Assembly: GCA_046543235.1 (NCBI GenBank)
Contig: JBKGZT010000047.1
Location: forward strand, 1-10,778
Source: Candidatus Acetothermia bacterium
Lineage (GTDB): Bacteria; Bipolaricaulota; Bipolaricaulia; M55B111
DNA length: 10,778 nt
Direction: 5' to 3'
The notes under the pieces were generated by a model. The model ran no database searches. It was not told the DNA's origin and was given only the letters and a program-made list of their open reading frames with translations. The translations under genes were made by a program, and so were the position numbers. How positions within the stretch are numbered: the first letter of the stretch is position 1; every line of letters starts with the position of its first letter. This document shows positions 6 through 10,778 of the stretch, piece by piece.

Positions 6-842
6 TTAAATCTTCTCGTACTCCTCGTCGGGCATGGAATAGCAGTGTTCCTCGCCTGGAAACTCGCCTTCCTTTACTTCTTCCCTGTACTGGGCCATTG
101 CTTCTACCATCTCGTCTCCCAGTTCGGCGTAGCGTTTGACGAACTTGGGCTTAAACAGCTCGAACAGCCCGAGTATGTCCTGGACTATCAAAAGCTGGCC
201 GTCGGTTGCGGATCCGGCGCCGATGCCGTAGATCGGGACGTCGGCTTCCTCGTAGATCTTTTTTCCGACCCGTTCCGGTATGGCTTCCAAAAGAATGGCA
301 AAGGCACCGGCATCCTCCAGCGCTTTGGCGTCCGCCATTAGTTCTCTGGCCGATTCGGCGTCCTTGCCCTGGCTCTTGTAGCCTCCAAGCTGTGCTGCCG
401 ATTGGGGTGTCATTCCAATGTGGCCTATTACCGGGATTCCGGCTTCGACTATCGCTTCGACCCGTGAGGCCATCCTCCGGCCGCCCTCCAGCTTGACCGC
501 ATCGGTACCACACTCGCCCATGAACCTGCCGGCGCTTTCTATCGCCTTCTCGTCGCTTGGCTGGTAGCTCATGTAGGGCATGTCACCTACCACGAAGGTG
601 GTCTCTGTCGCCCGGGTAACTGCCTTGGTCATCACGACCATCTCGTCCATTGTTACCGGGAGGGTGGAGTCGTAGCCCAGCAGGGTCATCCCGCCGGAAT
701 CGCCGACCAGAATCATCTCTATTCCCGCCTTTTCCTCGTATAAGGCAGTCGGGTAGTCGTAGGCGGTAAGCCAGGAGATCTTCTCGCCTTTCTCCTTCTT
801 CTCGTACAGGTAGTTTATGTTGATCTTGTCTCTGTCGGGCAT
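6..842 (-). CDS. panB: 3-methyl-2-oxobutanoate hydroxymethyltransferase (ketopantoate hydroxymethyltransferase, PanB family)
   Basis: 278 aa with the family motifs LTAYD, LVGDS, GDMPYMSY, AVKLEGG, GHIGMTPQ, LLEAIP, GIGAG, DGQ and PKFVKRY. SD GGAGGT at 849-854; TAA stop at 6-8. Confidence 0.95.
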   Translation of the reverse strand: MPDRDKININYLYEKKEKGEKISWLTAYDYPTALYEEKAGIEMILVGDSGGMTLLGYDSTLPVTMDEMVVMTKAVTRATETTFVVGDMPYMSYQPSDEKAIESAGRFMGECGTDAVKLEGGRRMASRVEAIVEAGIPVIGHIGMTPQSAAQLGGYKSQGKDAESARELMADAKALEDAGAFAILLEAIPERVGKKIYEEADVPIYGIGAGSATDGQLLIVQDILGLFELFKPKFVKRYAELGDEMVEAMAQYREEVKEGEFPGEEHCYSMPDEEYEKI

Positions 843-848
843 GTTAGT

Positions 849-854
849 ACCTCC
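849..854 (-). promoter_or_regulatory. Shine-Dalgarno site of panB
   Basis: GGAGGT lies 6 nt upstream of the ATG at 842. Confidence 0.85.
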
Positions 855-866
855 AGTTGGTTGAAG

Positions 867-2033
867 TTAAGTCTTTAGTTCGGAAAGTGCACTTTCGATC
901 CTTTTCAGCGCCTCTTCGAGCTCGGAACGGGGGGCGGAGTAGCAGAGCCTGAGGTAGCCTTCACCGCCAGCTCCGAAGGCGGTGCCGGGGAGGACGGCCA
1001 CGCCGGCTTCTTTTAGCAGGTAGTCGGCAAGCTCCTCGGCGTCCTTTTGGAAGCCCTCCACGTTCGGGAAGACATAGAAGGCACCGCGCGGGCTGGGACA
1101 GCTCACCCCGTCAATTTCGTTTAACCCTTCCAGGAGGAGCCCCCTCTTCTCCGCCAGGGTCTCTAACTGGCTTTCTACCTGCTCCTGTGGGCCCTGCAGG
1201 GCCTCGACTCCAGCATGCTGAGTGAAGGTAGCGGTGCAGCCGACCGAGTGGGTCAAAAGATAGCCCATCTTTTCGGCAAACTCTCCCGGGGCGGCGGCAA
1301 AACCCAGCCGCCAGCCGGTCATCGAGTAGGTCTTGGAGAATCCATCCACCAGTATGGTCCTCTCCTTCATGCCGGGGTAGGAGGCTATGCTTCTGTGGTT
1401 ACCTTCGTAGATCATCTCGGAGTAGATCTCGTCCGAGAGGACGAACGTATCGTATTCTTTGGCCAGTTCGGCTATCCTCTCGAGTTTCTCCCCGGAGATC
1501 ACGTTGCCCAGCGGGTTGCCGGGTGTATTGAGTAATAGCAGCTTCGTCTCCGGGCCGATCCGGGCCTCGAGCTCCTCGGTATCAAGGACGAAACCGTCCT
1601 CCTCCCGGAAGCCGTAAGGTACAGGCTCTCCACCGGTCACCTCGATCATCGACCTGTAGGTCGGGAAACCCGGATCCGGGTATAGGACATGGTCGCCGGC
1701 CTCTATCAGGGCCACCGTCGAAAGAAAAAGCAGCGGCTTGGCTCCCGGCCCGACCATTACCTCATCGGAGGTAACTTCCAGGTTCTCCCTCGTTGTAGTG
1801 AGCCTGTCCGCTACTGCTTCCCTCAATTCCTCTATACCGCTTGATGGATTATAGTCGGTCTTCCCTTCGGCCAGGGCTTTGATTCCGGCCAGGGTTATGT
1901 TGGAAAAGGTCGGGTAGTCCGGCTGACCGATCTCAAGATGGATCACTTCCCTGCCCTCCGCTTCCAGCTGGTTTGCCCGGGCAAGTACTTCGTAAGCCCC
2001 CTCGGGCTGGAGTGCGGCTACGTTGGGGTTCAT
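867..2033 (-). CDS. PLP-dependent aminotransferase class I/II (aspartate aminotransferase-like); true start may be ATT at 2078
   Basis: Motifs LEIGQPD, GIEELREA, PDPGFPTY, NTPGNPLG, SDEIY, GFSKTYSMTGWRLG (PLP lysine), GAFY, PGTAFG and YLRLCY. Confidence 0.93.
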   Translation of the reverse strand: MNPNVAALQPEGAYEVLARANQLEAEGREVIHLEIGQPDYPTFSNITLAGIKALAEGKTDYNPSSGIEELREAVADRLTTTRENLEVTSDEVMVGPGAKPLLFLSTVALIEAGDHVLYPDPGFPTYRSMIEVTGGEPVPYGFREEDGFVLDTEELEARIGPETKLLLLNTPGNPLGNVISGEKLERIAELAKEYDTFVLSDEIYSEMIYEGNHRSIASYPGMKERTILVDGFSKTYSMTGWRLGFAAAPGEFAEKMGYLLTHSVGCTATFTQHAGVEALQGPQEQVESQLETLAEKRGLLLEGLNEIDGVSCPSPRGAFYVFPNVEGFQKDAEELADYLLKEAGVAVLPGTAFGAGGEGYLRLCYSAPRSELEEALKRIESALSELKT

Positions 2034-2083
2034 CGCGGCAGTTGTTTTGAACTCTCTCGTACCCTCTTTGGTTTTAATTTTCG

Positions 2084-2092
2084 CTCCCCTCC
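2084..2092 (-). promoter_or_regulatory. Strong Shine-Dalgarno site upstream of an in-frame ATT of the aminotransferase
   Basis: Minus strand reads GGAGGGGAG-CGAAA-ATT. The ATT (2078-2076) is in frame with the ATG at 2033, with no stop between them. Confidence 0.6.
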
Positions 2093-2134
2093 ATTCACGC
2101 TTACTATCTCGTCAATCCAATTGTTTAATTCTCG

Positions 2135-2220
2135 CCGGCAACTGACACTGGTTGGCTTAAATCTCCTGAGAAAAGTTCAGACCAGGCCAACCATCGGAAC
2201 ATAAGCTTCTCCGGTGCCGG
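2135..2220 (-). other. Nested inverted repeats forming a putative multi-stem RNA structure in the mttB-aminotransferase spacer
   Basis: Plus-strand pairs: CCGGCA 2135-2140 with TGCCGG 2215-2220; TGGTTGGC 2149-2156 with GCCAACCA 2186-2193; CTGA 2166-2169 with TCAG 2177-2180; CGGA 2195-2198 with TCCG 2210-2213. Confidence 0.5.
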
Positions 2221-2236
2221 GATCAGAAATCAGAAT

Positions 2237-3703
2237 CTACGACCTGCTCTCTTCGTAGTTTGTCACGATCTCGTCAAGTTCGTCGGACACGTCACCGGGC
2301 AGTTTTTTCGGCTCGTGGTTTTCTAGAATGTCGATGACTTTTTTCCTAGCCCTCTCCCTCATGGTGGTCTCGCCGTCCTCGACCCAGCTTTCGTGGACCT
2401 GGCGGTCGACCAGGTCTGGGGACCAAATATCGTCCTTAAACCTCTCTATAGTCGTGGAAGAAGTGAGGTAGTTTCCGCCCGGACCGACTTCATCGACCTC
2501 CTCTACGCCAAGCGTATCCTCGTTGACCTGGACGCTCTGGGTGAAGCGGTCTATCATCGAGATTTCCTCGTTTGCGATGGTCAGAAGCTCGAGTGAAGAA
2601 GTCATACCGGATTCCAGGTAACCGACGTCGTGGACCAGGTTTCCGCCGGCCAGTGCGGCGTAGTTGAGCGAGTTGGCCATCTCCATCGTTGCCTGCTGGT
2701 CTATCTCCTTTGAGTCCGTAAATCCGCCGGCATTGAATGCCGGGACGCCGAGGAACGAACCTACTTCCTTGCGGAGCACCAGGCTCAGCATGGTTTCCGG
2801 CGCGGCGTAGGAAAAGACGGTCGTCTGCATGTCCATGGTCGTGGGGCCACCGCCAAAAATCAGGGACGAACCCTCCCGGACTGCTTGCGATAGGACCAGC
2901 CCGCTCAGGTACTCGGCCTCCGTCAAGGCATAGGCCCCGGCAAGCGAGATCGGTCCGGCAGCACCAAGCGACGGTGTCGGAACGTACATTATCGGTATTC
3001 CTTTTCTGGTGGAGTAAATCAGCTTATCGATTGCTTCCTTGGAATGCTTGAGCGGCGAACTGGGTTCGTCGTAAAGCAGAATGAACGGGTTCGACCGGAA
3101 CTCTTCTTCACCCCCGGCTACGGCGACGCTCATCTCGTAAATCGATTTCAACCCCTCCAGGTCCCACGCGGTAAAAACGATCGGTTTGGTCGTGTTCTTT
3201 ACCATCGCTTCAAAGTGGTGTGCGTCCGAATTGTACTTTGGCACGTCGTTTGCCAGCGCGAAGGACATTACGAAGTCTATATTCTCCAGGTAGTCGACGA
3301 CGGTCGCCGCCCTGACTACGTCTTCCTTTTCACACGTTCGTCGTTCGCCGGTATAAGGATCTATGGTATTCGGAGTCTCCGAGCCCGGGCCGAAATAAGT
3401 ATTGTCTCCTTCCAGGAAAATTTTTCGGTCACCGTTTCTGTCACTCAGCACCACCCGCTTGCCGCAGCTGTCGAGCGCGTTTTCCACCATGCTCGGAGGT
3501 ATCTTAACCGTCTTATCGTCGACCACGGTTGCGCCGGCATCGTCCAGTATCGATACTGCCTCTTCGGAGTGGAACTCGGTACCGGTCCTCTCCAGGATTT
3601 CCAGGGCCGACTGAAATACCCGTTCGTGCTGTTCTTCCGAAAAGACGTTGAGTTTAGGTCTGCTCCAGTAATTGAAATGATCGTTTATGCCCAATTTCAT
3701 CAC
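2237..3703 (-). CDS. mttB: Trimethylamine methyltransferase (MttB/MtgB) superfamily protein, non-pyrrolysine substrate:corrinoid methyltransferase
   Basis: About 488 aa with an N-terminal ILERTGTEFHSEEA and the motifs SPL, GPISLAG, AEYLSG, DMQT, APE, GGFTDSKEIDQQA, GNLVHDVGYLESG, VGPGGNYL and W..DG...RAR. No in-frame TAG. The start is uncertain (GTG 3703, ATG 3700 or TTG 3694; AGGAG spacing favours TTG). Confidence 0.92.
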   Translation of the reverse strand: MMKLGINDHFNYWSRPKLNVFSEEQHERVFQSALEILERTGTEFHSEEAVSILDDAGATVVDDKTVKIPPSMVENALDSCGKRVVLSDRNGDRKIFLEGDNTYFGPGSETPNTIDPYTGERRTCEKEDVVRAATVVDYLENIDFVMSFALANDVPKYNSDAHHFEAMVKNTTKPIVFTAWDLEGLKSIYEMSVAVAGGEEEFRSNPFILLYDEPSSPLKHSKEAIDKLIYSTRKGIPIMYVPTPSLGAAGPISLAGAYALTEAEYLSGLVLSQAVREGSSLIFGGGPTTMDMQTTVFSYAAPETMLSLVLRKEVGSFLGVPAFNAGGFTDSKEIDQQATMEMANSLNYAALAGGNLVHDVGYLESGMTSSLELLTIANEEISMIDRFTQSVQVNEDTLGVEEVDEVGPGGNYLTSSTTIERFKDDIWSPDLVDRQVHESWVEDGETTMRERARKKVIDILENHEPKKLPGDVSDELDEIVTNYEESRS

Positions 3704-3742
3704 TCCTGATTGGTGGTTGAATTATGTATATTAAGGTTCTGG

Positions 3743-4963
3743 CTATCGTATGCTGGCTAGGCCCCTGTCCAGGTCTTCCATCAAGTCATTCGCGGATTCT
3801 ATCCCCACGGACAGCCGGATCAGGTTCTTTCCGATCTCCGCCTCCTCGAGTTCCTCATCGGTCAACCTGTGGAAAATCGTCGAAGCAGGATGGCAGATCA
3901 CCGAACGGGAACTACCCTCGTGCGTCGCGTAAGGGATGAGCTCCAGCCCGTTCAGGAACTCGAACGCCTCTTCCTTGCCGCCCTTGACCTCGAAGGAAAG
4001 CAGGGAGCTGAACTCGTCCATCTGCCTCTTCGCCAGATCGTGGCCCGGGTGGCTCTCGAGTCCCGGATAGTTGACGGACTGAACCGCATCGTGGTCCGCT
4101 AAGAACTCTGCTACCTTCATGGCATTTTCCGAGTGTTTTTTCATCCGCATGTCCAGGCTTTCCAGGCCAAGCAGGGAGAGCCACGCGTTGAACGGCGCCA
4201 TCGCGTTCCCGTACTGGATGTATTCCAGTCGTCTGATTTTCTGGATCAGCCGGTCCTCCCCGACCAGGACGCCACCGAGGATCGTCCCGTTGCCGCTGAT
4301 AAACTTGGAGACGGATTCGATGACGATATCGGCACCAAGATCCAGCGGCCTCTGTAAAACAGGAGTCGCTATAGTATTATCCACTATTAACTTCGTGCCG
4401 TAGGAGTCGGCCAGACCGGCGAGCTTCCCTATATCCCCGACGAACAGCACCGGATTGCTCGGAGTTTCGACAAACATGAATTCCGTATCCTCGGTTACCG
4501 CCTCTTCCCACTGGGAAAAGTCGTCGGGTTTGTCCACGACCTTCGTTTCCACCCCAAACCTCGGCAGAGTTCGGGCAAACAGTTCAAAAGAGCAAGTGTA
4601 AGTATGGTTTGAGACGACGATTTCGTCTCCAGCTTCCAGCGAGTAAAGAGCTATCAGCGAGATAGCCGCCATACCCGAACTGGTGGCAAGGGCCCCTCCC
4701 CCGTTCTCGAGCAGCGCGATTCTATCCTCGAATATATCCAGGGTCGGGTTGTTCTCCCTCGTGTAGATGTAGCCCTGTAGACCACCGTACTCGTCGTAAT
4801 TGGCCTCGGTATCGAACACCCATTCCGCCTTCTCAGCGCTTTCGAAAGGGTGTGCTAAGGACTGGGCCAGCGGGGGCGGCAGCGACTCCTTTGCCACGCT
4901 TTTATCCAATCCGTAGCCACCCATCACCTGCTGTGTTCTCTGATCAAGTTCTTCCTGGTTCAT
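3743..4963 (-). CDS. Cys/Met metabolism PLP-dependent enzyme (methionine gamma-lyase / cystathionine gamma-synthase / sulfhydrylase family), divergent
   Basis: Motifs YTRENNPT, SSGMAAI, ETPSNP, VDNT, SVSKF (PLP lysine at 4304-4306), YPGLESHP, HPAST and IRLSVGIE. SD AGGAGGT at 4974-4980. Confidence 0.92.
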   Translation of the reverse strand: MNQEELDQRTQQVMGGYGLDKSVAKESLPPPLAQSLAHPFESAEKAEWVFDTEANYDEYGGLQGYIYTRENNPTLDIFEDRIALLENGGGALATSSGMAAISLIALYSLEAGDEIVVSNHTYTCSFELFARTLPRFGVETKVVDKPDDFSQWEEAVTEDTEFMFVETPSNPVLFVGDIGKLAGLADSYGTKLIVDNTIATPVLQRPLDLGADIVIESVSKFISGNGTILGGVLVGEDRLIQKIRRLEYIQYGNAMAPFNAWLSLLGLESLDMRMKKHSENAMKVAEFLADHDAVQSVNYPGLESHPGHDLAKRQMDEFSSLLSFEVKGGKEEAFEFLNGLELIPYATHEGSSRSVICHPASTIFHRLTDEELEEAEIGKNLIRLSVGIESANDLMEDLDRGLASIR

Positions 4964-4973
4964 AGAACTTACA

Positions 4974-4980
4974 ACCTCCT
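4974..4980 (-). promoter_or_regulatory. Shine-Dalgarno site of the PLP lyase gene
   Basis: AGGAGGT lies 10 nt upstream of the ATG at 4963. Confidence 0.8.
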
Positions 4981-5125
4981 GATGTTTGAAAAATTGTCAT
5001 TACGGTCAATGGCGCAAGAACGAAAACAAAACACTATTCGGGCTACCTAAATCAATCTCGAGGCTTTCCTGGCAGACAGTTGCGTTCTTAGTCTCGATTA
5101 AACTTGGTAAAACAATTGAGTAAAC

Positions 5126-7216
5126 CTATTTCTGCAGAACCGGTTCCACTTCCTTAAGCTCTTCGATTGGAATGTGACAGGTAATCGTATGTTTGTCATC
5201 ACCTATGGACCGTGTAGGAGGCTCTTCCTCTTCGCAGATTTCCCCTATTTTCCTGGGGCATCTCGTGTGAAAACGGCAGCCGTCAGGTACGTCCCGGGCA
5301 CTCGGTACGGCTCCCTCAAGCCTAATACGCTTCTGTTCGACCTCCGGGTCCGGTACCGAGACCGAAGAGAGGAGCGCCTCGGTGTAAGGGTGGTAGGGCG
5401 GATTCAGAATTTCGTTCGTGGGGCCGACTTCGACCAACCTGCCGAGATACATCACCGCCATGTAATCGCTTATATAGCTGACGACCGCGAGGTTGTGAGA
5501 GATGTACATGAAGGAGGTATCGAGGTCCTCCTGTAGGTCCAGCAGCAGGTTGATGATCGAGGACTGGATCGAAACGTCCAGGCTTGAAGTCGGCTCGTCA
5601 CAGAGAACCAGTTCCGGCTGACTGGCAAAGGCCCGGGCAATTGCGACTCGTTGCTTCTGCCCGCCGCTGAGCTGGTCCGGATGTCTGTCCATATAGCTCG
5701 GCCCTAGATCGACAGCTTGAAGCAGCTCTTCCGTCTTATTGATGGCCTCCTCCCGGTTCGCCCCGGCCAGCTGAATCGGTCGCATCATGGCCTGCTTTAT
5801 AGTTCGCTTTGGGTTTAGAGTGGCACGGGGGTCCTGAAATACTATTCTTATCTGCTTCAGGACTTCCGGTTCCCGTCCTTCTATGGGAACTGAGATATCC
5901 CTGTCTTCGAGCTTGATCTGGCCTTCAGTTATATCTTCGAGCCCGATAATCGTCCTGGCAAGAGTGCTTTTCCCGCAGCCGGACTCCCCTACTACACCTA
6001 AAGTATTTCCCTCCTCCAGGTCGAAGCTCACGTCGTCAACTGCCCTTACTCTTTCGTCCTTTTTTTCTCGGCTAAAGAAACCAGAGCTGGCTTCTCCAAA
6101 GTACTTCTTAACCTTCTCCGCCTCCAGCACCTTCTTATCCTTTCCACTTTCAGCGGTCTCGTAATTTTCTTCCGCCTCCCGAGGGCCCTTTTCGTAACGG
6201 TCCTCGGCAACCACTTCCGCCTCGTAACAACGGACGTATCGGTTCTCGCCTAATTCCCGAAATTCCGGCTCTTTCCCCGTACATCTTTCTTCTCTGTAAG
6301 GACAGCGGGGATTGAACTTACAGCCGGGGGGCAGGTCGTCCAGCTCGACTACGGAGCCCTCCACGGGTCGCAGCTTCCCCTTAACGGTCTTCGTGGATAC
6401 CTCCGGGACGGAGCGCAACAACCCCCGCGTGTAAGGATGGATAGGGTTTCCGATCAGCTCGTCCGTCGGACCCTCCTCGACGAATTGCCCCGCGTACATT
6501 ACACCCGATCGATCGCTGACTTCGTAGACGACGCCAAGATCGTGAGTTATGTACAGGATGGTTGTCTCGAATTCGTTCTTCAGGTCCTTGATTATGTCAA
6601 GTATCCTTGCTTCCACCGTGACGTCCAGGTTGGTGGTCGGTTCGTCCATTATCAGCAGCTTCGGCCGTGAAACGAGGGCCATCGCCAGACAGACGCGCTG
6701 TCGCATCCCTCCGCTCAACTGGTGCGGGTAGCTGTCCACGACGATATCCGGATCGGAAATCTGAAGTTCTTCCAGTGTATCGATCGACCGGTTTCTTGCT
6801 TCCTCTTCGGACATTCCCTTGTGGGTCTCCAGTACTTCGCCGATCTGTTTACCGACCTTGATCGAAGGATTCAGCGCCGCCGAAGGATCCTGGTAGACGA
6901 TGTTTAGCTCCTTACCCCAAATATTCCTCATCCAGCTTTCCGGCTTATCCGATATATCCTCCCCATCCAGCAGGATTCGGCCGCTGTCGATCCGGCCGTT
7001 GCGGTCGAGATACCCCATTATCGCAAAGGCGAGAGTACTCTTACCGCAGCCGGACTCGCCGACTATCCCCTGAGTCGTACCTCTTTCCACCGACAAATCG
7101 ACCCCGCGGACAGCGGTCAGGTCGCCGGAACGCGTTTCGTAAGTCACCACCAGATCTCTTAGCTCGAGAATCGGGTCGGGCGCATGCCTTGTCTCGCTCA
7201 TTTCGTTTCCCTCCAT
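5126..7216 (-). CDS. Dpp/Opp-family ABC transporter ATP-binding protein, fused DppD-DppF type with two NBDs
   Basis: Two Walker A motifs GESGCGKST, signatures LSGGMRQR and LSGGQKQR, Walker B LIMDEPT and VLCDEPT, and two HPYT plus Cys-rich C-terminal domains. Start is either the TAATG-coupled ATG at 7216 or the ATG at 7201 (GGAGG at 7210-7214). Confidence 0.95.
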   Translation of the reverse strand: MEGNEMSETRHAPDPILELRDLVVTYETRSGDLTAVRGVDLSVERGTTQGIVGESGCGKSTLAFAIMGYLDRNGRIDSGRILLDGEDISDKPESWMRNIWGKELNIVYQDPSAALNPSIKVGKQIGEVLETHKGMSEEEARNRSIDTLEELQISDPDIVVDSYPHQLSGGMRQRVCLAMALVSRPKLLIMDEPTTNLDVTVEARILDIIKDLKNEFETTILYITHDLGVVYEVSDRSGVMYAGQFVEEGPTDELIGNPIHPYTRGLLRSVPEVSTKTVKGKLRPVEGSVVELDDLPPGCKFNPRCPYREERCTGKEPEFRELGENRYVRCYEAEVVAEDRYEKGPREAEENYETAESGKDKKVLEAEKVKKYFGEASSGFFSREKKDERVRAVDDVSFDLEEGNTLGVVGESGCGKSTLARTIIGLEDITEGQIKLEDRDISVPIEGREPEVLKQIRIVFQDPRATLNPKRTIKQAMMRPIQLAGANREEAINKTEELLQAVDLGPSYMDRHPDQLSGGQKQRVAIARAFASQPELVLCDEPTSSLDVSIQSSIINLLLDLQEDLDTSFMYISHNLAVVSYISDYMAVMYLGRLVEVGPTNEILNPPYHPYTEALLSSVSVPDPEVEQKRIRLEGAVPSARDVPDGCRFHTRCPRKIGEICEEEEPPTRSIGDDKHTITCHIPIEELKEVEPVLQK

Positions 7217-8070
7217 TAGAGTTCCCCCGCTTCGTACTTCCTAATGGCGTCAGCGAGGAAGTTTACCGCGACGACCAGCGAAGCGATCGCCAGAGCCGGG
7301 AATATCGCCATCCAAGGCGCGTTAGTTATGTGAGGCTGAGCGTTTTTCATCAACAGACCCCAATCCGGTGTCGGCGGCTGGACTCCCAGCCCGAGAAAAC
7401 CCAGGGAAGCACTCAAAAAGATCGCGTAGCCGAACCTTACCGATGCCTCCACACCTAGGGGGCCCCAGATATTGGGAAGTAGTTCGGCAAACATGATATA
7501 AAGATTCGATTCACCCCGAACCTTCGCCGCCTCGATAAATTCCTTTTCTTTGACCTCCAATACCGCACTCCGCGCCACCCGGGCTATCCGGGGAGCATAC
7601 ACCAGTCCAATAACCACTATGACCCCAAAAGTACTGGGTCCAAATATTCCCAGAATGAGCATGGCAAAAAGAAGTGCGGGAAACGACATCAATATATCCA
7701 TGAACCGCATTACAATCTCGTCCACTAGTCCCCCGAGGAAACCGGTGATCAATCCGATGGAACTTCCAAGAAGGAGGCTGATTGCAGTGGCAGTACTCGC
7801 CAAGATCATTATCGACCTGCTACCAATTAATACTCGGCTAAATACATCTCGCCCGAACCTGTCCGTACCAAAAGGGTGTTTTAAACTTGGACCCTCGAAT
7901 CGGTCCTGCATGTTATACTCCGTCGGAGAATAGGGAGCAATCATCGGTCCAAAAAGAGCTATAGCAACCCACAGAAGTATTATCGACATACCTATTAGGC
8001 CCAGACGGGAGTTGGCAAGCCTCTTGACTACCTGAAAAGCGTTTTGGGCTTTTCTCGTTAGTCGTTCCAT
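7216..8070 (-). CDS. Dpp/Opp-family ABC transporter permease (DppC/OppC-like)
   Basis: HPFGTDRFGRD motif, EAA loop EFIEAAKVRG, LGFLGLGVQPPTPDWG and several hydrophobic segments. SD GGAGGT at 8079-8084. Confidence 0.95.
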   Translation of the reverse strand: MERLTRKAQNAFQVVKRLANSRLGLIGMSIILLWVAIALFGPMIAPYSPTEYNMQDRFEGPSLKHPFGTDRFGRDVFSRVLIGSRSIMILASTATAISLLLGSSIGLITGFLGGLVDEIVMRFMDILMSFPALLFAMLILGIFGPSTFGVIVVIGLVYAPRIARVARSAVLEVKEKEFIEAAKVRGESNLYIMFAELLPNIWGPLGVEASVRFGYAIFLSASLGFLGLGVQPPTPDWGLLMKNAQPHITNAPWMAIFPALAIASLVVAVNFLADAIRKYEAGEL

Positions 8071-8126
8071 TTTTCGCTACCTCCGGTCATTTCACTTTCC
8101 TTTAAATATATCACTGTATCACCAAT

Positions 8127-9068
8127 TTAATAACGAATCCTGGGGTCGAGAAACGTGTATATTACGTCCGAGGTCAGATTCAAAATCAGGTAGACCGCGC
8201 TGGTCAGCAACACGCTGGCCTGGATAAGCGGTATATCCTGCCTCTGAATCGAAATATACACGAGCCGGCCGAGACCGGGAAAAGCAAACAAAGTTTCAAC
8301 AACTACAAGGCCGCCGATCAGCCAGCCGAGATTCATCGCTATGACCGTTACTGTAGGCATCAAAGCGTTTCTAAGGATATGCCAGATAACCTTGTGCTGA
8401 GGTAATCCTTTTAAAACAGCCGTCCGGGCGTAATCGGCATGGGAGGCATCAATAACGCTTGCCCTAACCATGCGGGCTACGTAACCCAGTAATACCAGGG
8501 ATACCGTTATTATGGGTAATATTAGCCTTGGAAAAACTTCAAACAGGTTGGCATTGGGCTGAATTGAACTCGTGGCTGGTAAAAGTCCCAGCCAGATAGA
8601 AAATATTAGCACCAGAAAAGTGCCCGATATAAAGGACGGCATCGACAGGGCGACAAGGGAAGAGGTCGAAATAAAGTGATCCAGCCAGCTTCCTTCTTTT
8701 AGCCCTGCAATCACTCCCAGAAAAAGAGACAGAGGAACCAGAAATATCGTTGCGCAGACTGCGAGGAAGAGGGAATTGAGGCCTCGACGCAGCACAATGG
8801 AAGACACGGAAACGCCCTGCATGCTCAGGGAAGTCCCCATGTCGCCGTGAAGAATCCCCCAGATCCAGTTCCCGTATCGGACCAATGGAGGCTGGTTCAA
8901 GCCTAGCCGGGCTCGGAGTCCTTCCAGCGCTTCCTGTGTGGCGTTCTGGCCAAGTATCATCTGAGCGACGTCTCCCGGGATCAACACAGTAAGGGCAAAG
9001 ATTATAATCGAAGCTATGAACAATGTAATAACCATGTTTACCAGGCGCTTTCCAATGAACTTTGTCAT
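8127..9068 (-). CDS. Dpp/Opp-family ABC transporter permease (DppB/OppB-like); start reassigned from 9134 to 9068
   Basis: Motifs PGD, LGLNQP, GDMGTS, DYARTAVLKGL, HILRNA, VETLFAFPGLG and DPRI. GGAGG at 9075-9079 sits 6 nt before ATG 9068 (MTKFIGKRL, a typical DppB N-terminus). The longer ORF start runs through the upstream hairpin. Confidence 0.93.
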   Translation of the reverse strand: MTKFIGKRLVNMVITLFIASIIIFALTVLIPGDVAQMILGQNATQEALEGLRARLGLNQPPLVRYGNWIWGILHGDMGTSLSMQGVSVSSIVLRRGLNSLFLAVCATIFLVPLSLFLGVIAGLKEGSWLDHFISTSSLVALSMPSFISGTFLVLIFSIWLGLLPATSSIQPNANLFEVFPRLILPIITVSLVLLGYVARMVRASVIDASHADYARTAVLKGLPQHKVIWHILRNALMPTVTVIAMNLGWLIGGLVVVETLFAFPGLGRLVYISIQRQDIPLIQASVLLTSAVYLILNLTSDVIYTFLDPRIRY

Positions 9069-9098
9069 TTCCATCCTCCCTTCTGCTTGCGCTAATTT

Positions 9099-9132
9099 AA
9101 AGAAAGAGGGTGCCCTTTTTGTAAGGGCACCC
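9099..9132 (-). terminator. Intra-operon intrinsic terminator-like or mRNA-stabilising hairpin after the binding-protein gene
   Basis: Perfect 10-bp stem GGGTGCCCTT-ACAAA-AAGGGCACCC (9108-9132), followed on the minus strand by TCTTTCTTT. It begins 24 nt after the stop codon. Confidence 0.85.
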
Positions 9133-9156
9133 AACTCGATACTCCACGGGTTTTAC

Positions 9157-10674
9157 TTAATCCTTCAACTCGATAAACCTGTAGTCGTTAATCCAGTTCT
9201 GAGTCAAATAGAACCCTTCGATTCTCTCCGAGGTAGCTCCCAGATAATCTTTGAACATGGGTATCAAGGCAGGTATGTCCTCGTGGAGAATTTCCTGGAT
9301 TTTAGTGAAGTATTCTTGCCTTTTCTCCGGGTCGGGCGTCCCGCTTGCCTGCTCGACGTATTTGTCCAGTTCCTCGTTGCAATAGTGGCTTGCATTCCAG
9401 GAAGCATCACAGGTTAATGCCGTTCCTAGCATCTGCGTAATATCCTCTCTGTGACCCCAAAGAGTCGCTGACATCGGAACCTGGAGCCAGTATTTGGAAT
9501 AGTACTGATCCCTGGGCAGCGTGTTTAGTTCAATCGAGAAACCCGCTGGCCTTGCCATTTCCTGAAGAGTCAAAGCAACGTCAAGAACTGGAGGTATATT
9601 CGATCCACAATAGAGCGTTACCTCGACACCGTCAGAATAACCAGCTTCTTCCAGTAATTCTTTTGCCTTTTCAATGTCCCTCTCTCTTACTCCGCCAAGA
9701 TCATCATAGAATTCGTGCCAATCTGGTATCGGGGTATCGTTACCTACCGTACCTAACCCGTAGCCAGCGGATTCAAGCAATGCTTCCCTATCTACCGTCA
9801 GTGCCAGAGCTCTTCTGACCTTGGGATCCTCAAAAGGTTCTTCCTCCGTATTTAAGTCAATCATAATCGGAGCTGCGTACTGTTCGTCGAGAGTATTGAC
9901 GTTATCCTCCCTCTGGAGGCGGAGATACTGATCCGGACTCAAATCGGTGATGACATCTGCTTGGCCGGAGGAGACCATACTGACACCCGTCTCTTTTTCA
10001 GGCACCATAAGAAAAGTAAGTTCGTCTATTTTGGGAGCGCCCTCAACCCAGTAATCCTCAAAGGCCGAAGCCTCAACCCGTTCCCGCGGGGTAACGTTGT
10101 CCACTTTAAATGCTCCACTACCCATAGGTTCCGTGTCTCCGCGTTCCGAATAGTTGTAATCGGCAGAAATAACTGCAGCGTTATAATCAGTTAATTTTTT
10201 GTGAAATCCTGCGTCGGGCCTACTCAGGTTGAACCTGACAGTATGGTCGTCCAGAGCTTCTACACTTTCGATGATAGGGCCAAGGGTCCCGAGTAATGCA
10301 CTTCCCACATCTTCATCGATAAGCCGTTCAAAGGTATATACGACGTCTTCCGCAGTCAACTTGGAGCCATCGTGAAAGGTTACACCCTGATGAAGCTCCA
10401 TAGTCCATACGGTAGAATCCTCGTTCAACTCGTACGATTTCACGAGCGAAGGTACGGTCTCTTTATCTTCCCCCACTCTGAATAGATAGTCATAGACGGC
10501 ACTCGCGATATTTCCACCTGCATTAGAATTCAAGAAACCCGGTGTTAGGCTACCAGACGGGATCATAACTGCTTTAACTGGTTCCTGAGCCTGCGTACTG
10601 GTAGAAAATCCCGATAACAGCAAACCCGAAAGAATCAATGTAACTACTAACGTTAGACCTATTTTTTTATGCAT
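9157..10674 (-). CDS. ABC transporter substrate-binding protein, family 5 (Dpp/Opp/Nik)
   Basis: 505 aa. Signal peptide MHKK-hydrophobic stretch-TQA, plus GVTFHDGSKLTAEDVVYTF, PMGSGAF, PFEDPKVRRAL and AKELLEEAGY. Confidence 0.95.
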   Translation of the reverse strand: MHKKIGLTLVVTLILSGLLLSGFSTSTQAQEPVKAVMIPSGSLTPGFLNSNAGGNIASAVYDYLFRVGEDKETVPSLVKSYELNEDSTVWTMELHQGVTFHDGSKLTAEDVVYTFERLIDEDVGSALLGTLGPIIESVEALDDHTVRFNLSRPDAGFHKKLTDYNAAVISADYNYSERGDTEPMGSGAFKVDNVTPRERVEASAFEDYWVEGAPKIDELTFLMVPEKETGVSMVSSGQADVITDLSPDQYLRLQREDNVNTLDEQYAAPIMIDLNTEEEPFEDPKVRRALALTVDREALLESAGYGLGTVGNDTPIPDWHEFYDDLGGVRERDIEKAKELLEEAGYSDGVEVTLYCGSNIPPVLDVALTLQEMARPAGFSIELNTLPRDQYYSKYWLQVPMSATLWGHREDITQMLGTALTCDASWNASHYCNEELDKYVEQASGTPDPEKRQEYFTKIQEILHEDIPALIPMFKDYLGATSERIEGFYLTQNWINDYRFIELKD

Positions 10675-10678
10675 TATC

Positions 10679-10685
10679 TCACCTC
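10679..10685 (-). promoter_or_regulatory. Shine-Dalgarno site of the binding-protein gene
   Basis: GAGGTGA lies 4 nt upstream of the ATG at 10674. Confidence 0.8.
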
Positions 10686-10778
10686 GTCGAGATATGATTG
10701 ATCGATTGAAGTCAAGCTCTCTCGAGACTGTTTAGCCTCGTGGCACTTGCACAAATTGAGAAACCTCACGTTCCTACC

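Follow-up and report, generated by a model that had tools for sequence, protein, structure and literature searches.

The present work examines a stretch of DNA of 10,778 bp (the window), which is the entire contig C51 of a metagenome-assembled genome (MAG; G000) of the phylum Bipolaricaulota, and describes in it a gene module which combines an ATP-binding cassette (ABC) importer, a pyridoxal phosphate (PLP)-dependent lyase of the Cys/Met family and a non-pyrrolysine corrinoid methyltransferase of the MttB superfamily. The module is real, conserved and lineage-restricted, and of a known general kind, namely MttB-based methyl transfer with its own importer and regulator. Its accessory enzyme and its active site match no system described in the part of the literature covered. 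The chances are about even that these genes (unit 1; positions 5126-10674 and 2237-4963) form a substrate-specific methylotrophy module for the uptake, demethylation and γ-cleavage of a methylated C4 amino acid, in which the two remaining genes (unit 2; 6-2033), coding for an aminotransferase and PanB, need not take part. A preliminary description of the same DNA had joined all eight genes in one catabolic module; the core of that idea stands for six of them (importer, lyase and MttB) and fails for the aminotransferase and PanB.

For unit 1 we infer a catabolic direction and the following order of steps. The Opp/Dpp-type importer would take up a methylated, amino-acid-like compound, from which MttB would pass one methyl group to a corrinoid protein encoded elsewhere in the genome. 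The PLP enzyme would then cleave the demethylated C4 amino acid at the γ carbon, yielding 2-oxobutyrate, ammonia and either a thiol or water. A GntR/FCD regulator would stand in front of the module, as it does in relatives, and the aminotransferase and PanB of unit 2 would be phylum-wide genes which happen to lie downstream. The preliminary description held that the substrate cannot be read from sequence, and the present analysis agrees; as a class, the predicted proteins point most likely to a methylated homoserine- or methionine-type compound, either S-methylmethionine or methionine, or an N-methylated homoserine. The former would lead to the release of methanethiol or sulfide, and the latter, up to homoserine betaine, would require several demethylations. 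Homoserine betaine would fit the three MttB genes of a related cluster in Anaerolineales better than the single MttB of the window. A more specific proposal is tentative and rather unlikely as it stands: an undescribed anaerobic route in halophilic Bipolaricaulota and Anaerolineales, whereby an MttB lacking a characteristic arginine and a private γ-lyase would demethylate a methylated C4 amino acid (S-methylmethionine, methionine or homoserine betaine) and split its skeleton to 2-oxobutyrate. In titles and abstract openings, the literature yielded no published pathway of this kind, and the preliminary statement that no pathway with this gene set had been described holds within the same bounds.

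The module is delimited by its recurrence in other genomes. A scan of species-representative genomes, seeded with MttB, gave 29 loci, nine of them from Bipolaricaulota, and the phylum was further represented by a comparison set of 184 species genomes, 71 of which are of high quality. In all nine Bipolaricaulota loci (MttB identity of 79-95%), MttB is directly preceded by the lyase gene, and ABC genes come before the lyase in each of the six loci which reach further. Orthologues of the lyase (at least 66% identity) occur in 11 of the 184 genomes, the next best match being at 45%; along with the host genome itself, these are seven congeners, two members of a sister genus and G160, which belongs to a different family. 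G160 retains the order at 52-69% identity, within an array on one strand with short gaps, which runs from GntR through four ABC genes, the lyase, MttB, an unnamed gene of 300 amino acids (aa), the large and small subunits of AcnX, PrpD and the aminotransferase to PanB. The gene directly after MttB differs among the nine loci in which it can be resolved: it is the aminotransferase in three (the window, L001 and L003), PanB in one (L005), PrpD in one (L008), the unnamed 300-aa gene in two (L004 and L128) and AcnX in two (L006 and L009). This variation marks the importer, lyase and MttB genes as the stable unit, and the region downstream as a mosaic. The preliminary description had staked its proposal on the recurrence of the gene set, and importer, lyase and non-pyrrolysine MttB do recur together in the 11 genomes, with a parallel form in Anaerolineales and on two metagenome contigs.

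In the parallel form, five Anaerolineales loci share the order GntR, MttB, a Cys/Met-family enzyme (about 41% identical to that of the window), two more MttB genes, a proline-racemase-family gene and an aminotransferase, with a divergently oriented SBP_bac_5 importer alongside. The lyase concerned belongs to a clade of its own (clade C, see below), which is found in 21 of the 145 species genomes of this Anaerolineales-level order, and 11 of the 12 loci examined have MttB genes flanking it, the twelfth having less than 500 bp on each side. The lyase also adjoins MttB on the metagenome contigs L052 and L055. These two are all that emerged among 80 kept loci of a metagenome scan with two generic peptide patterns, which recovered mostly ordinary MetY/MetZ relatives (35-49% identity) and says little on the close clade. 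Judged by gene order, the pairing of lyase and MttB is robust within each phylum. A further trend is the association of MttB genes with SBP_bac_5 importers, which recurs on another contig of the host genome (C92), in the Anaerolineales loci and in L011, L025 and L052. Two details of the metagenome contigs may be recorded here: L055 also carries a DUF1638 gene (L055:3948-4652), next to its lyase gene and two MttB genes, and on L053, outside the Bipolaricaulota clusters, a PrpD-family gene is located directly upstream of a Cys/Met-family enzyme which is 42% identical to that of the window (L053:180-2496).

The methyltransferase (2237..3703, minus strand; Pfam MTTB) matches PF06253 at 316.8 bits, against a gathering threshold of 25, over residues 16-482 of 488. 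Its reading frame is open under translation table 11, with no in-frame stop or TAG, and a Phe aligns with the pyrrolysine of 7xcl. An Rfam match to PYLIS_3 below threshold (2623-2722, minus strand; 21.2 bits against 38, E 0.69), which begins at the pyrrolysine-equivalent codon, is probably residual coding-sequence similarity to true mttB. The protein scores 406.7 bits with the trimethylamine methyltransferase model TIGR02369, under its cut-off of 525, and matches MtgB (2qne/9yce; 196 bits) and the pyrrolysine enzyme 7xcl (193 bits) about equally. MttB-superfamily genes are very common in anoxic, saline and gut habitats. The substrates of the characterized members comprise glycine betaine, proline betaine, carnitine, γ-butyrobetaine and phosphocholine (PMC13080624, in excerpt). 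The same excerpt names Y97, R312, H348 and F356 as the glycine betaine ligands of MtgB, and describes R312 as conserved in the characterized MtgB, MtcB, MtyB, MtpB and MthB and as the proposed binding site for the acidic group of the substrate (PMC13080624). In the window enzyme these positions are occupied by Ser, Phe, His and Gly, such that one of the four is kept. All nine aligned orthologues share its residues, including the Phe in the R312 column, and the paralogue on contig C49 of the same genome, which lies beside a BCCT carrier, shows Y, R, H and Y in the same columns and serves as a positive control for the alignment. The Arg is also absent from the paralogues on contigs C55 and C92 and from the MttB proteins of Anaerolineales. 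By its predicted active site, the window enzyme is thus not a classical betaine enzyme of the glycine-betaine type, and its place is in a large Arg-less branch in which no characterized member was found. In the MttB tree, the proteins paired with a lyase are distributed over at least five clades with an unresolved backbone, and the clade of the window has a support of 100/100.

The lyase (3743..4963, minus strand; Pfam Cys_Met_Meta_PP) belongs to PF01053 (385.7 bits) and carries the PLP-binding lysine, K220, which is invariant in alignments of 8 and of 16 relatives. The preliminary description called it a divergent γ-lyase, and its scores bear this out: it falls below all NCBIfam cut-offs, with best values of 378.7 against 522 and 372.7 against 510 (O-succinyl/O-acetyl-homoserine sulfhydrylase, MetZ/MetY), and reaches 354.2 bits with the methionine γ-lyase model TIGR01328, whose cut-off is 549.7. 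Its best solved relatives are methionine γ-lyases and O-succinylhomoserine sulfhydrylase, at 288-293 bits. Methionine γ-lyases carry the active-site motif YGCT, in which the Cys has a role. The window enzyme has YTCS at this position, where the Cys is kept and the Gly replaced, together with a HEGSSR motif and a 16-residue insertion near the N-terminus. The retained Cys is a weak hint at a sulfur substrate. The basic residue of HEGSSR was considered as a special feature and dropped, as it is normal for MetY/MetZ-like enzymes.

The lyase clade is rare, with about 25 clusters at 50% identity or more among the 120 best matches listed. In the lyase tree, the Bipolaricaulota enzymes form clade A with rare relatives of 45-56% identity; it also takes in the 53-56% identical sequences P0018-P0026, one of which is from a Pseudomonadota MAG. 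Clade C comprises the three placed Anaerolineales lyases and those of L052 and L055, and in a sister clade B the neighbors are genes for homoserine dehydrogenase or threonine synthase. Taken jointly, clades A, B and C stand apart from canonical MetY/MetZ-like sequences, among them the second copy in the host genome, a canonical MetY-like gene on contig C37 (428 bits). The C4 amino-acid skeleton invoked in the preliminary description is a reasonable assumption in view of the chemistry of the family, the nearest solved relatives and the homoserine context of clade B, and the enzyme probably performs γ-elimination on a homoserine- or methionine-type amino acid.

The importer has the complete architecture of the Opp/Dpp/Nik type, with all of its genes on the minus strand. 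It consists of a substrate-binding protein (9157..10674; SBP_bac_5, 280.3 bits), an OppB/NikB-like permease (8127..9068 with a revised start; BPD_transp_1 and BPD_transp_1_N), an OppC/NikC-like permease (7216..8070; BPD_transp_1 and OppC_N) and a fused double ATPase of the OppD-OppF type (5126..7216), with two ABC_tran and two oligo_HPY stretches. The binding protein has an N-terminal signal peptide and no lipobox Cys, and remains under every NCBIfam equivalog cut-off, the best score being 170.5 against 600. Its nearest solved chains are 5u4o, GsiB, DppA and AgaA. In each of the five related loci which extend that far (L001, L002, L004, L005 and L128), the binding-protein gene is preceded by a GntR/FCD regulator gene, and a gene of this type would be expected just past the contig end of the window; a tblastn search of G000 for the orthologue found none. 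Since the window comprises the whole contig, both flanks could hold further genes of the operon.

The broader genomic context is one of several methyltransferase modules. The host genome codes for five MttB paralogues, each beside its own transporter, and three of the other four have a GntR gene in front. The C49 module couples an MtgB-like MttB with the BCCT carrier and also lies beside genes for S-adenosylmethionine (SAM) synthetase and for the path from aspartate to homoserine. On C55 (L045:6186-17994), GntR, two tandem non-pyrrolysine MttB genes (41% and 46% identical to that of the window) and a Liv-type ABC importer come after creatininase and hydantoinase/oxoprolinase genes, an arrangement which hints at a substrate of the creatinine, creatine or sarcosine type. 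The C92 module (L046:1344-11631) contains GntR, MttB, a second methyltransferase (MT2) of the MtaA/CmuA family, a PrpD-family gene and an SBP_bac_5 importer with two binding-protein genes, 40% identical to that of the window. As for possible partners, a single MtgC-like corrinoid protein is encoded on C87, beside an OpuAC gene and genes for the glycine cleavage P-protein, a RamA-like activator domain (RACo_C_ter) is found on C88, and there are two pterin-binding proteins. This content fits an organism which lives on methylated compounds by means of interchangeable substrate modules, which would share their carrier proteins.

The part of the window downstream of MttB is of a different nature. 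PanB (3-methyl-2-oxobutanoate hydroxymethyltransferase; 6..842, minus strand; Pantoate_transf) exceeds the cut-offs of TIGR00222 (307.6 against 207.55) and NF001452 (360.9 against 272). It is found in 158 of the 184 phylum genomes and in 66 of the 71 of high quality, as a single copy in G000, and in a tree of 29 sequences the window copy falls in a clade which follows the family structure of the phylum. By this distribution, PanB is a vertically inherited core gene. A transfer of PanB into G160 together with the cluster was considered and found unsupported: the partial PanB of G160, with 44% of the columns filled, groups with family f11. In G058 its neighbors are the trp operon on one side and a rubrerythrin gene on the other. 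The class I aminotransferase (867..2033, minus strand; Aminotran_1_2, 231 bits) is of the AspAT Ib or aromatic type, with 1dju and 1gd9 as nearest solved chains. Its family is very widespread: 7996 of 8000 scored candidates had E values of at most 1e-60, and the relatives at 55-59% identity include many from Latescibacterota, Anaerolineae, Acidobacteriota and other phyla. The aminotransferase probably serves as a general enzyme, and its membership in the module is doubtful.

Other loci carry different genes in this region. The large and small subunits of AcnX are encoded in L004, L006, L009 and L128, their best NCBIfam name being cis-3-hydroxy-L-proline dehydratase (368.8 bits against a cut-off of 700); the window has no AcnX gene, and none was found in the rest of G000. 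A proline-racemase-family protein, likewise under the curated cut-offs, is encoded in four Anaerolineales loci. The unnamed 300-aa protein (L128:9960-10886, L004:11562-12452 and L136:11212-12162), which follows MttB in two Bipolaricaulota clusters, has no Pfam or NCBIfam match and is near the U32 family by language-model features (0.96) only. An unnamed gene of about 280 aa in the Anaerolineales clusters is unrelated to it.

Several of these observations weigh against the proposed catabolic module or against its limits. The binding protein matches only generic binders of peptides, nickel, glutathione and opines. The window contains no gene for a corrinoid protein, MT2 or activator, so that partners on other contigs have to be assumed, and CdhC/acetyl-CoA synthase was not found in the 87%-complete genome. 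Between Bipolaricaulota and Anaerolineales, the lyases are of different clades (41% identity) and the MttB clade of the window is not sister to those of Anaerolineales; the two pairings may thus serve different substrates. The tight 13-gene array of G160, which holds a U32-like gene, AcnX and PrpD and ends with the aminotransferase and PanB, may reflect a larger single pathway which includes the latter two, and the unnamed 300-aa gene adjoins PanB in a genome of yet another family (G084). The AcnX and proline-racemase-family genes of the extended clusters point to chemistry of the hydroxyproline type. Finally, neither PanC (PF02569) nor the archaeal phosphopantothenate synthetase (PF02006) was found in the 87%-complete G000, and PanC occurs in 32 of the 71 high-quality genomes of the phylum and in none of the 22 of family f2 (including two single-contig genomes), which nevertheless keeps PanB. 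The role of PanB in these lineages is thus not settled simply as pantothenate synthesis.

Some of these points would favor the full model of the preliminary description, in which the eight genes form one catabolic operon, and demethylation and/or γ-cleavage is followed by transamination and a PanB-mediated release of C1 units to folate. The genes are co-oriented and no terminator is predicted between MttB, aminotransferase and PanB; the last two follow MttB both in the window and in L001, and the aminotransferase does so in L003, where the contig ends. The same two genes close the array of G160, in another family, and PanB is retained with neither PanC nor the archaeal phosphopantothenate synthetase found in G000, and without PanC throughout the 22 f2 genomes. 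Yet the gene which follows MttB varies over the nine loci, the aminotransferase is missing from L005 and L008, and PanB lies about 22 kb from the lyase in G069. PanB is present in 158 genomes, compared to 11 for the lyase, with a tree which follows the families, and G067, which is of a related genus and gave no lyase match, has the aminotransferase (67%) and PanB (87%) as a pair between permease and heliorhodopsin genes. An aminotransferase of 55-57% identity ends the Anaerolineales clusters L016, L019 and L027, but 55-59% is the general level of this family across phyla, and the resemblance was dropped as a sign of a shared module. A 203-bp spacer also separates the MttB and aminotransferase genes. 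The two genes are best regarded as general genes lying downstream because of their wide distribution, their pairing without the module and the mosaic nature of the region, and the full model is unlikely; its central claim, that all four enzymes can be placed on one C4 skeleton, finds no support.

A similarly unlikely explanation reverses the direction, such that the PLP enzyme would be a homocysteine synthase (sulfhydrylase) and the methyl group harvested by MttB would pass, via a corrinoid protein and a folate-independent methionine synthase, to homocysteine to make methionine. The lyase does lie on the MetY/MetZ side of its family and has the basic residue typical of sulfhydrylases, its sister clade is found in contexts of homoserine and threonine biosynthesis, the MtgB-like paralogue on C49 adjoins the SAM synthetase and aspartate-to-homoserine genes, and PF02574, the domain of MetH/BHMT-type homocysteine methyltransferases, was not found in G000. 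Core methionine synthases which depend on a corrinoid protein do exist (PMC7857596, in excerpt). The genome, however, already has its canonical MetY-like gene on C37, the cluster lacks a methionine synthase gene, the clade has the altered active-site motif YTCS in place of YGGT, and the combination of a dedicated importer and a GntR/FCD regulator is typical of catabolic units. Slightly less credence is given to a pathway of the hydroxyproline or proline-betaine type, in which a methylated cyclic amino acid would, once demethylated, be processed by 3-hydroxyproline-dehydratase-like enzymes and the PLP enzyme would have a non-lyase role such as racemization, the window being a reduced remnant. 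Two unrelated families of hydroxyproline metabolism (AcnX and proline racemase) appear in the extended clusters, a racemase is known within the Cys/Met family (9iz5), and MtpB demethylates proline betaine (PMC13080624, in excerpt). The matches to AcnX and racemase are nevertheless all under curated cut-offs, and the pair of lyase and MttB persists without AcnX in the window, L001, L005 and L008. The lyase is also far closer to γ-lyases (293 bits) than to the racemase (204 bits), and MttB lacks the Arg common to the characterized betaine enzymes, MtpB included. Least probable of all is the absence of any functional unit, whereby a generic peptide importer would lie by chance beside unrelated metabolic genes. 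In its favor, the binding protein and permeases resemble only general systems for peptides, nickel and glutathione, two spacers are long (162 and 203 bp), and the genes differ in base composition (from 0.49 to 0.69-0.72 at third codon positions) and show mosaic identities among relatives; against this stand the order of importer, lyase and MttB, which two families retain at identities ranging from 95% to 52-69%, and the repeated placement of MttB genes beside SBP_bac_5 importers in C92, the Anaerolineales loci, L011, L025 and L052.

At the level of gene arrangement, eight open reading frames (ORFs) on the minus strand fill the contig, and the ORF calls and Pfam domain matches confirm the eight co-oriented genes of the preliminary description. 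The leader of the binding-protein gene (10675..10778) reaches the contig end and contains GAGGTGA 4 nt before the ATG. In gene order the spacers are 88, 56, -1, 162, 39, 203 and 24 bp, where the first value applies to the revised start of permease 1 and the -1 stands for a one-base overlap between the permease 2 stop and the ATPase start; the spacers were previously described as short, which is true for five junctions and not for those between ATPase and lyase (162 bp) and between MttB and aminotransferase (203 bp). For permease 1, the start is most likely the ATG at 9068 rather than the TTG at 9134, because the N-terminal Pfam domain does not start until residue 23 of the TTG ORF, and GGGAGG is located 6 nt upstream of the ATG. 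The 162-bp spacer (4964..5125) carries AGGAGG 8 nt before the ATG of the lyase gene, and the 203-bp spacer (2034..2236) is the junction at which related loci diverge.

The sole strong terminator-like hairpin on the coding strand (9108..9132; 10 pairs, seven of them G-C, followed by a T-rich run) sits between the binding-protein and permease genes, and is likely a partial terminator which would raise the output of binding protein. The same scan found no terminator-like site in the enzyme part, including the 162- and 203-bp spacers, and an Rfam scan of the window gave no riboswitch or other element above threshold. The G+C content at third codon positions is 0.49-0.56 in the binding-protein and permease genes and 0.65-0.72 in the other five, with extremes in the binding-protein gene (0.49) and the enzyme genes (0.69-0.72). 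The binding protein shares 94% identity with its counterpart in L005 and 78% with that in L001, and MttB shows the opposite relation (95% to L001 and 84% to L005). Composition and identities together suggest that species of the genus have exchanged parts of the cluster by recombination.

The host MAG measures 1.32 Mb in 97 contigs, with a G+C content of 0.527 and a completeness of 87%. The stretch is present in four DNA runs of a single study, labelled as hypersaline lake or microbial mat metagenome, and no RNA run containing it appeared among the runs listed. Its nearest relatives are labelled Candidatus Bipolaricaulota, or "uncultured Thermotogae" in some third-party assemblies.

The substrates of few MttB enzymes have been characterized, and the conserved pairing with a γ-lyase narrows the search for new ones to methylated homoserine- or methionine-like compounds. 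Should S-methylmethionine or methionine prove to be the substrate, it would be the first sulfonium or thioether substrate of the MttB family. With either of these or with homoserine betaine, the cycling of algal or plant osmolytes or of sulfur compounds would be linked to cobalamin-dependent methylotrophy in uncultured phyla of hypersaline mats.

A comparison with known systems places the module among the MttB-based ones while setting apart its enzymes. The closest is the MtgB/MtgC/MtgA system of Desulfitobacterium hafniense (PDB 2QNE, 9YCE) with the siblings MtpB, MtcB, MtyB and MthB, which belong to the same superfamily and likewise lack pyrrolysine; the window protein matches MtgB over its full length at about 196 bits, and its genome has an MtgC-like corrinoid protein and a RamA-like activator, alongside a substrate module with its own transporter. 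The window MttB differs in the changes of Y97 to S, R312 to F and F356 to G, its cluster codes for neither a corrinoid protein nor MT2, and a PLP gene of the γ-lyase type is fixed beside it, which is absent from the described systems in the part of the literature examined. The pyrrolysine-containing MttB (7XCL) is similar in overall score (193 bits, with 406.7 bits for TIGR02369), in the aromatic residue at the R312 position and in the Gly at the F356 position, yet the window MttB has no in-frame TAG, carries Phe in place of pyrrolysine and falls under the TIGR02369 cut-off. With methionine γ-lyase, MetY and MetZ, the lyase shares the fold family, the PLP lysine, the N-terminal phosphate-binding Tyr/Arg and the Cys at the γ-lyase position, and it is distinguished from them by scores under the equivalog cut-offs, by YTCS, HEGSSR and the 16-residue insertion, and by a rare clade of its own. 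For the importer, a possible likeness is offered by Prb of Sinorhizobium meliloti, an Opp-like ABC importer which, going by the title of a 2006 report by Alloing et al., reportedly carries proline betaine, and which would be an Opp-family importer for a methylated amino acid derivative rather than for peptides.

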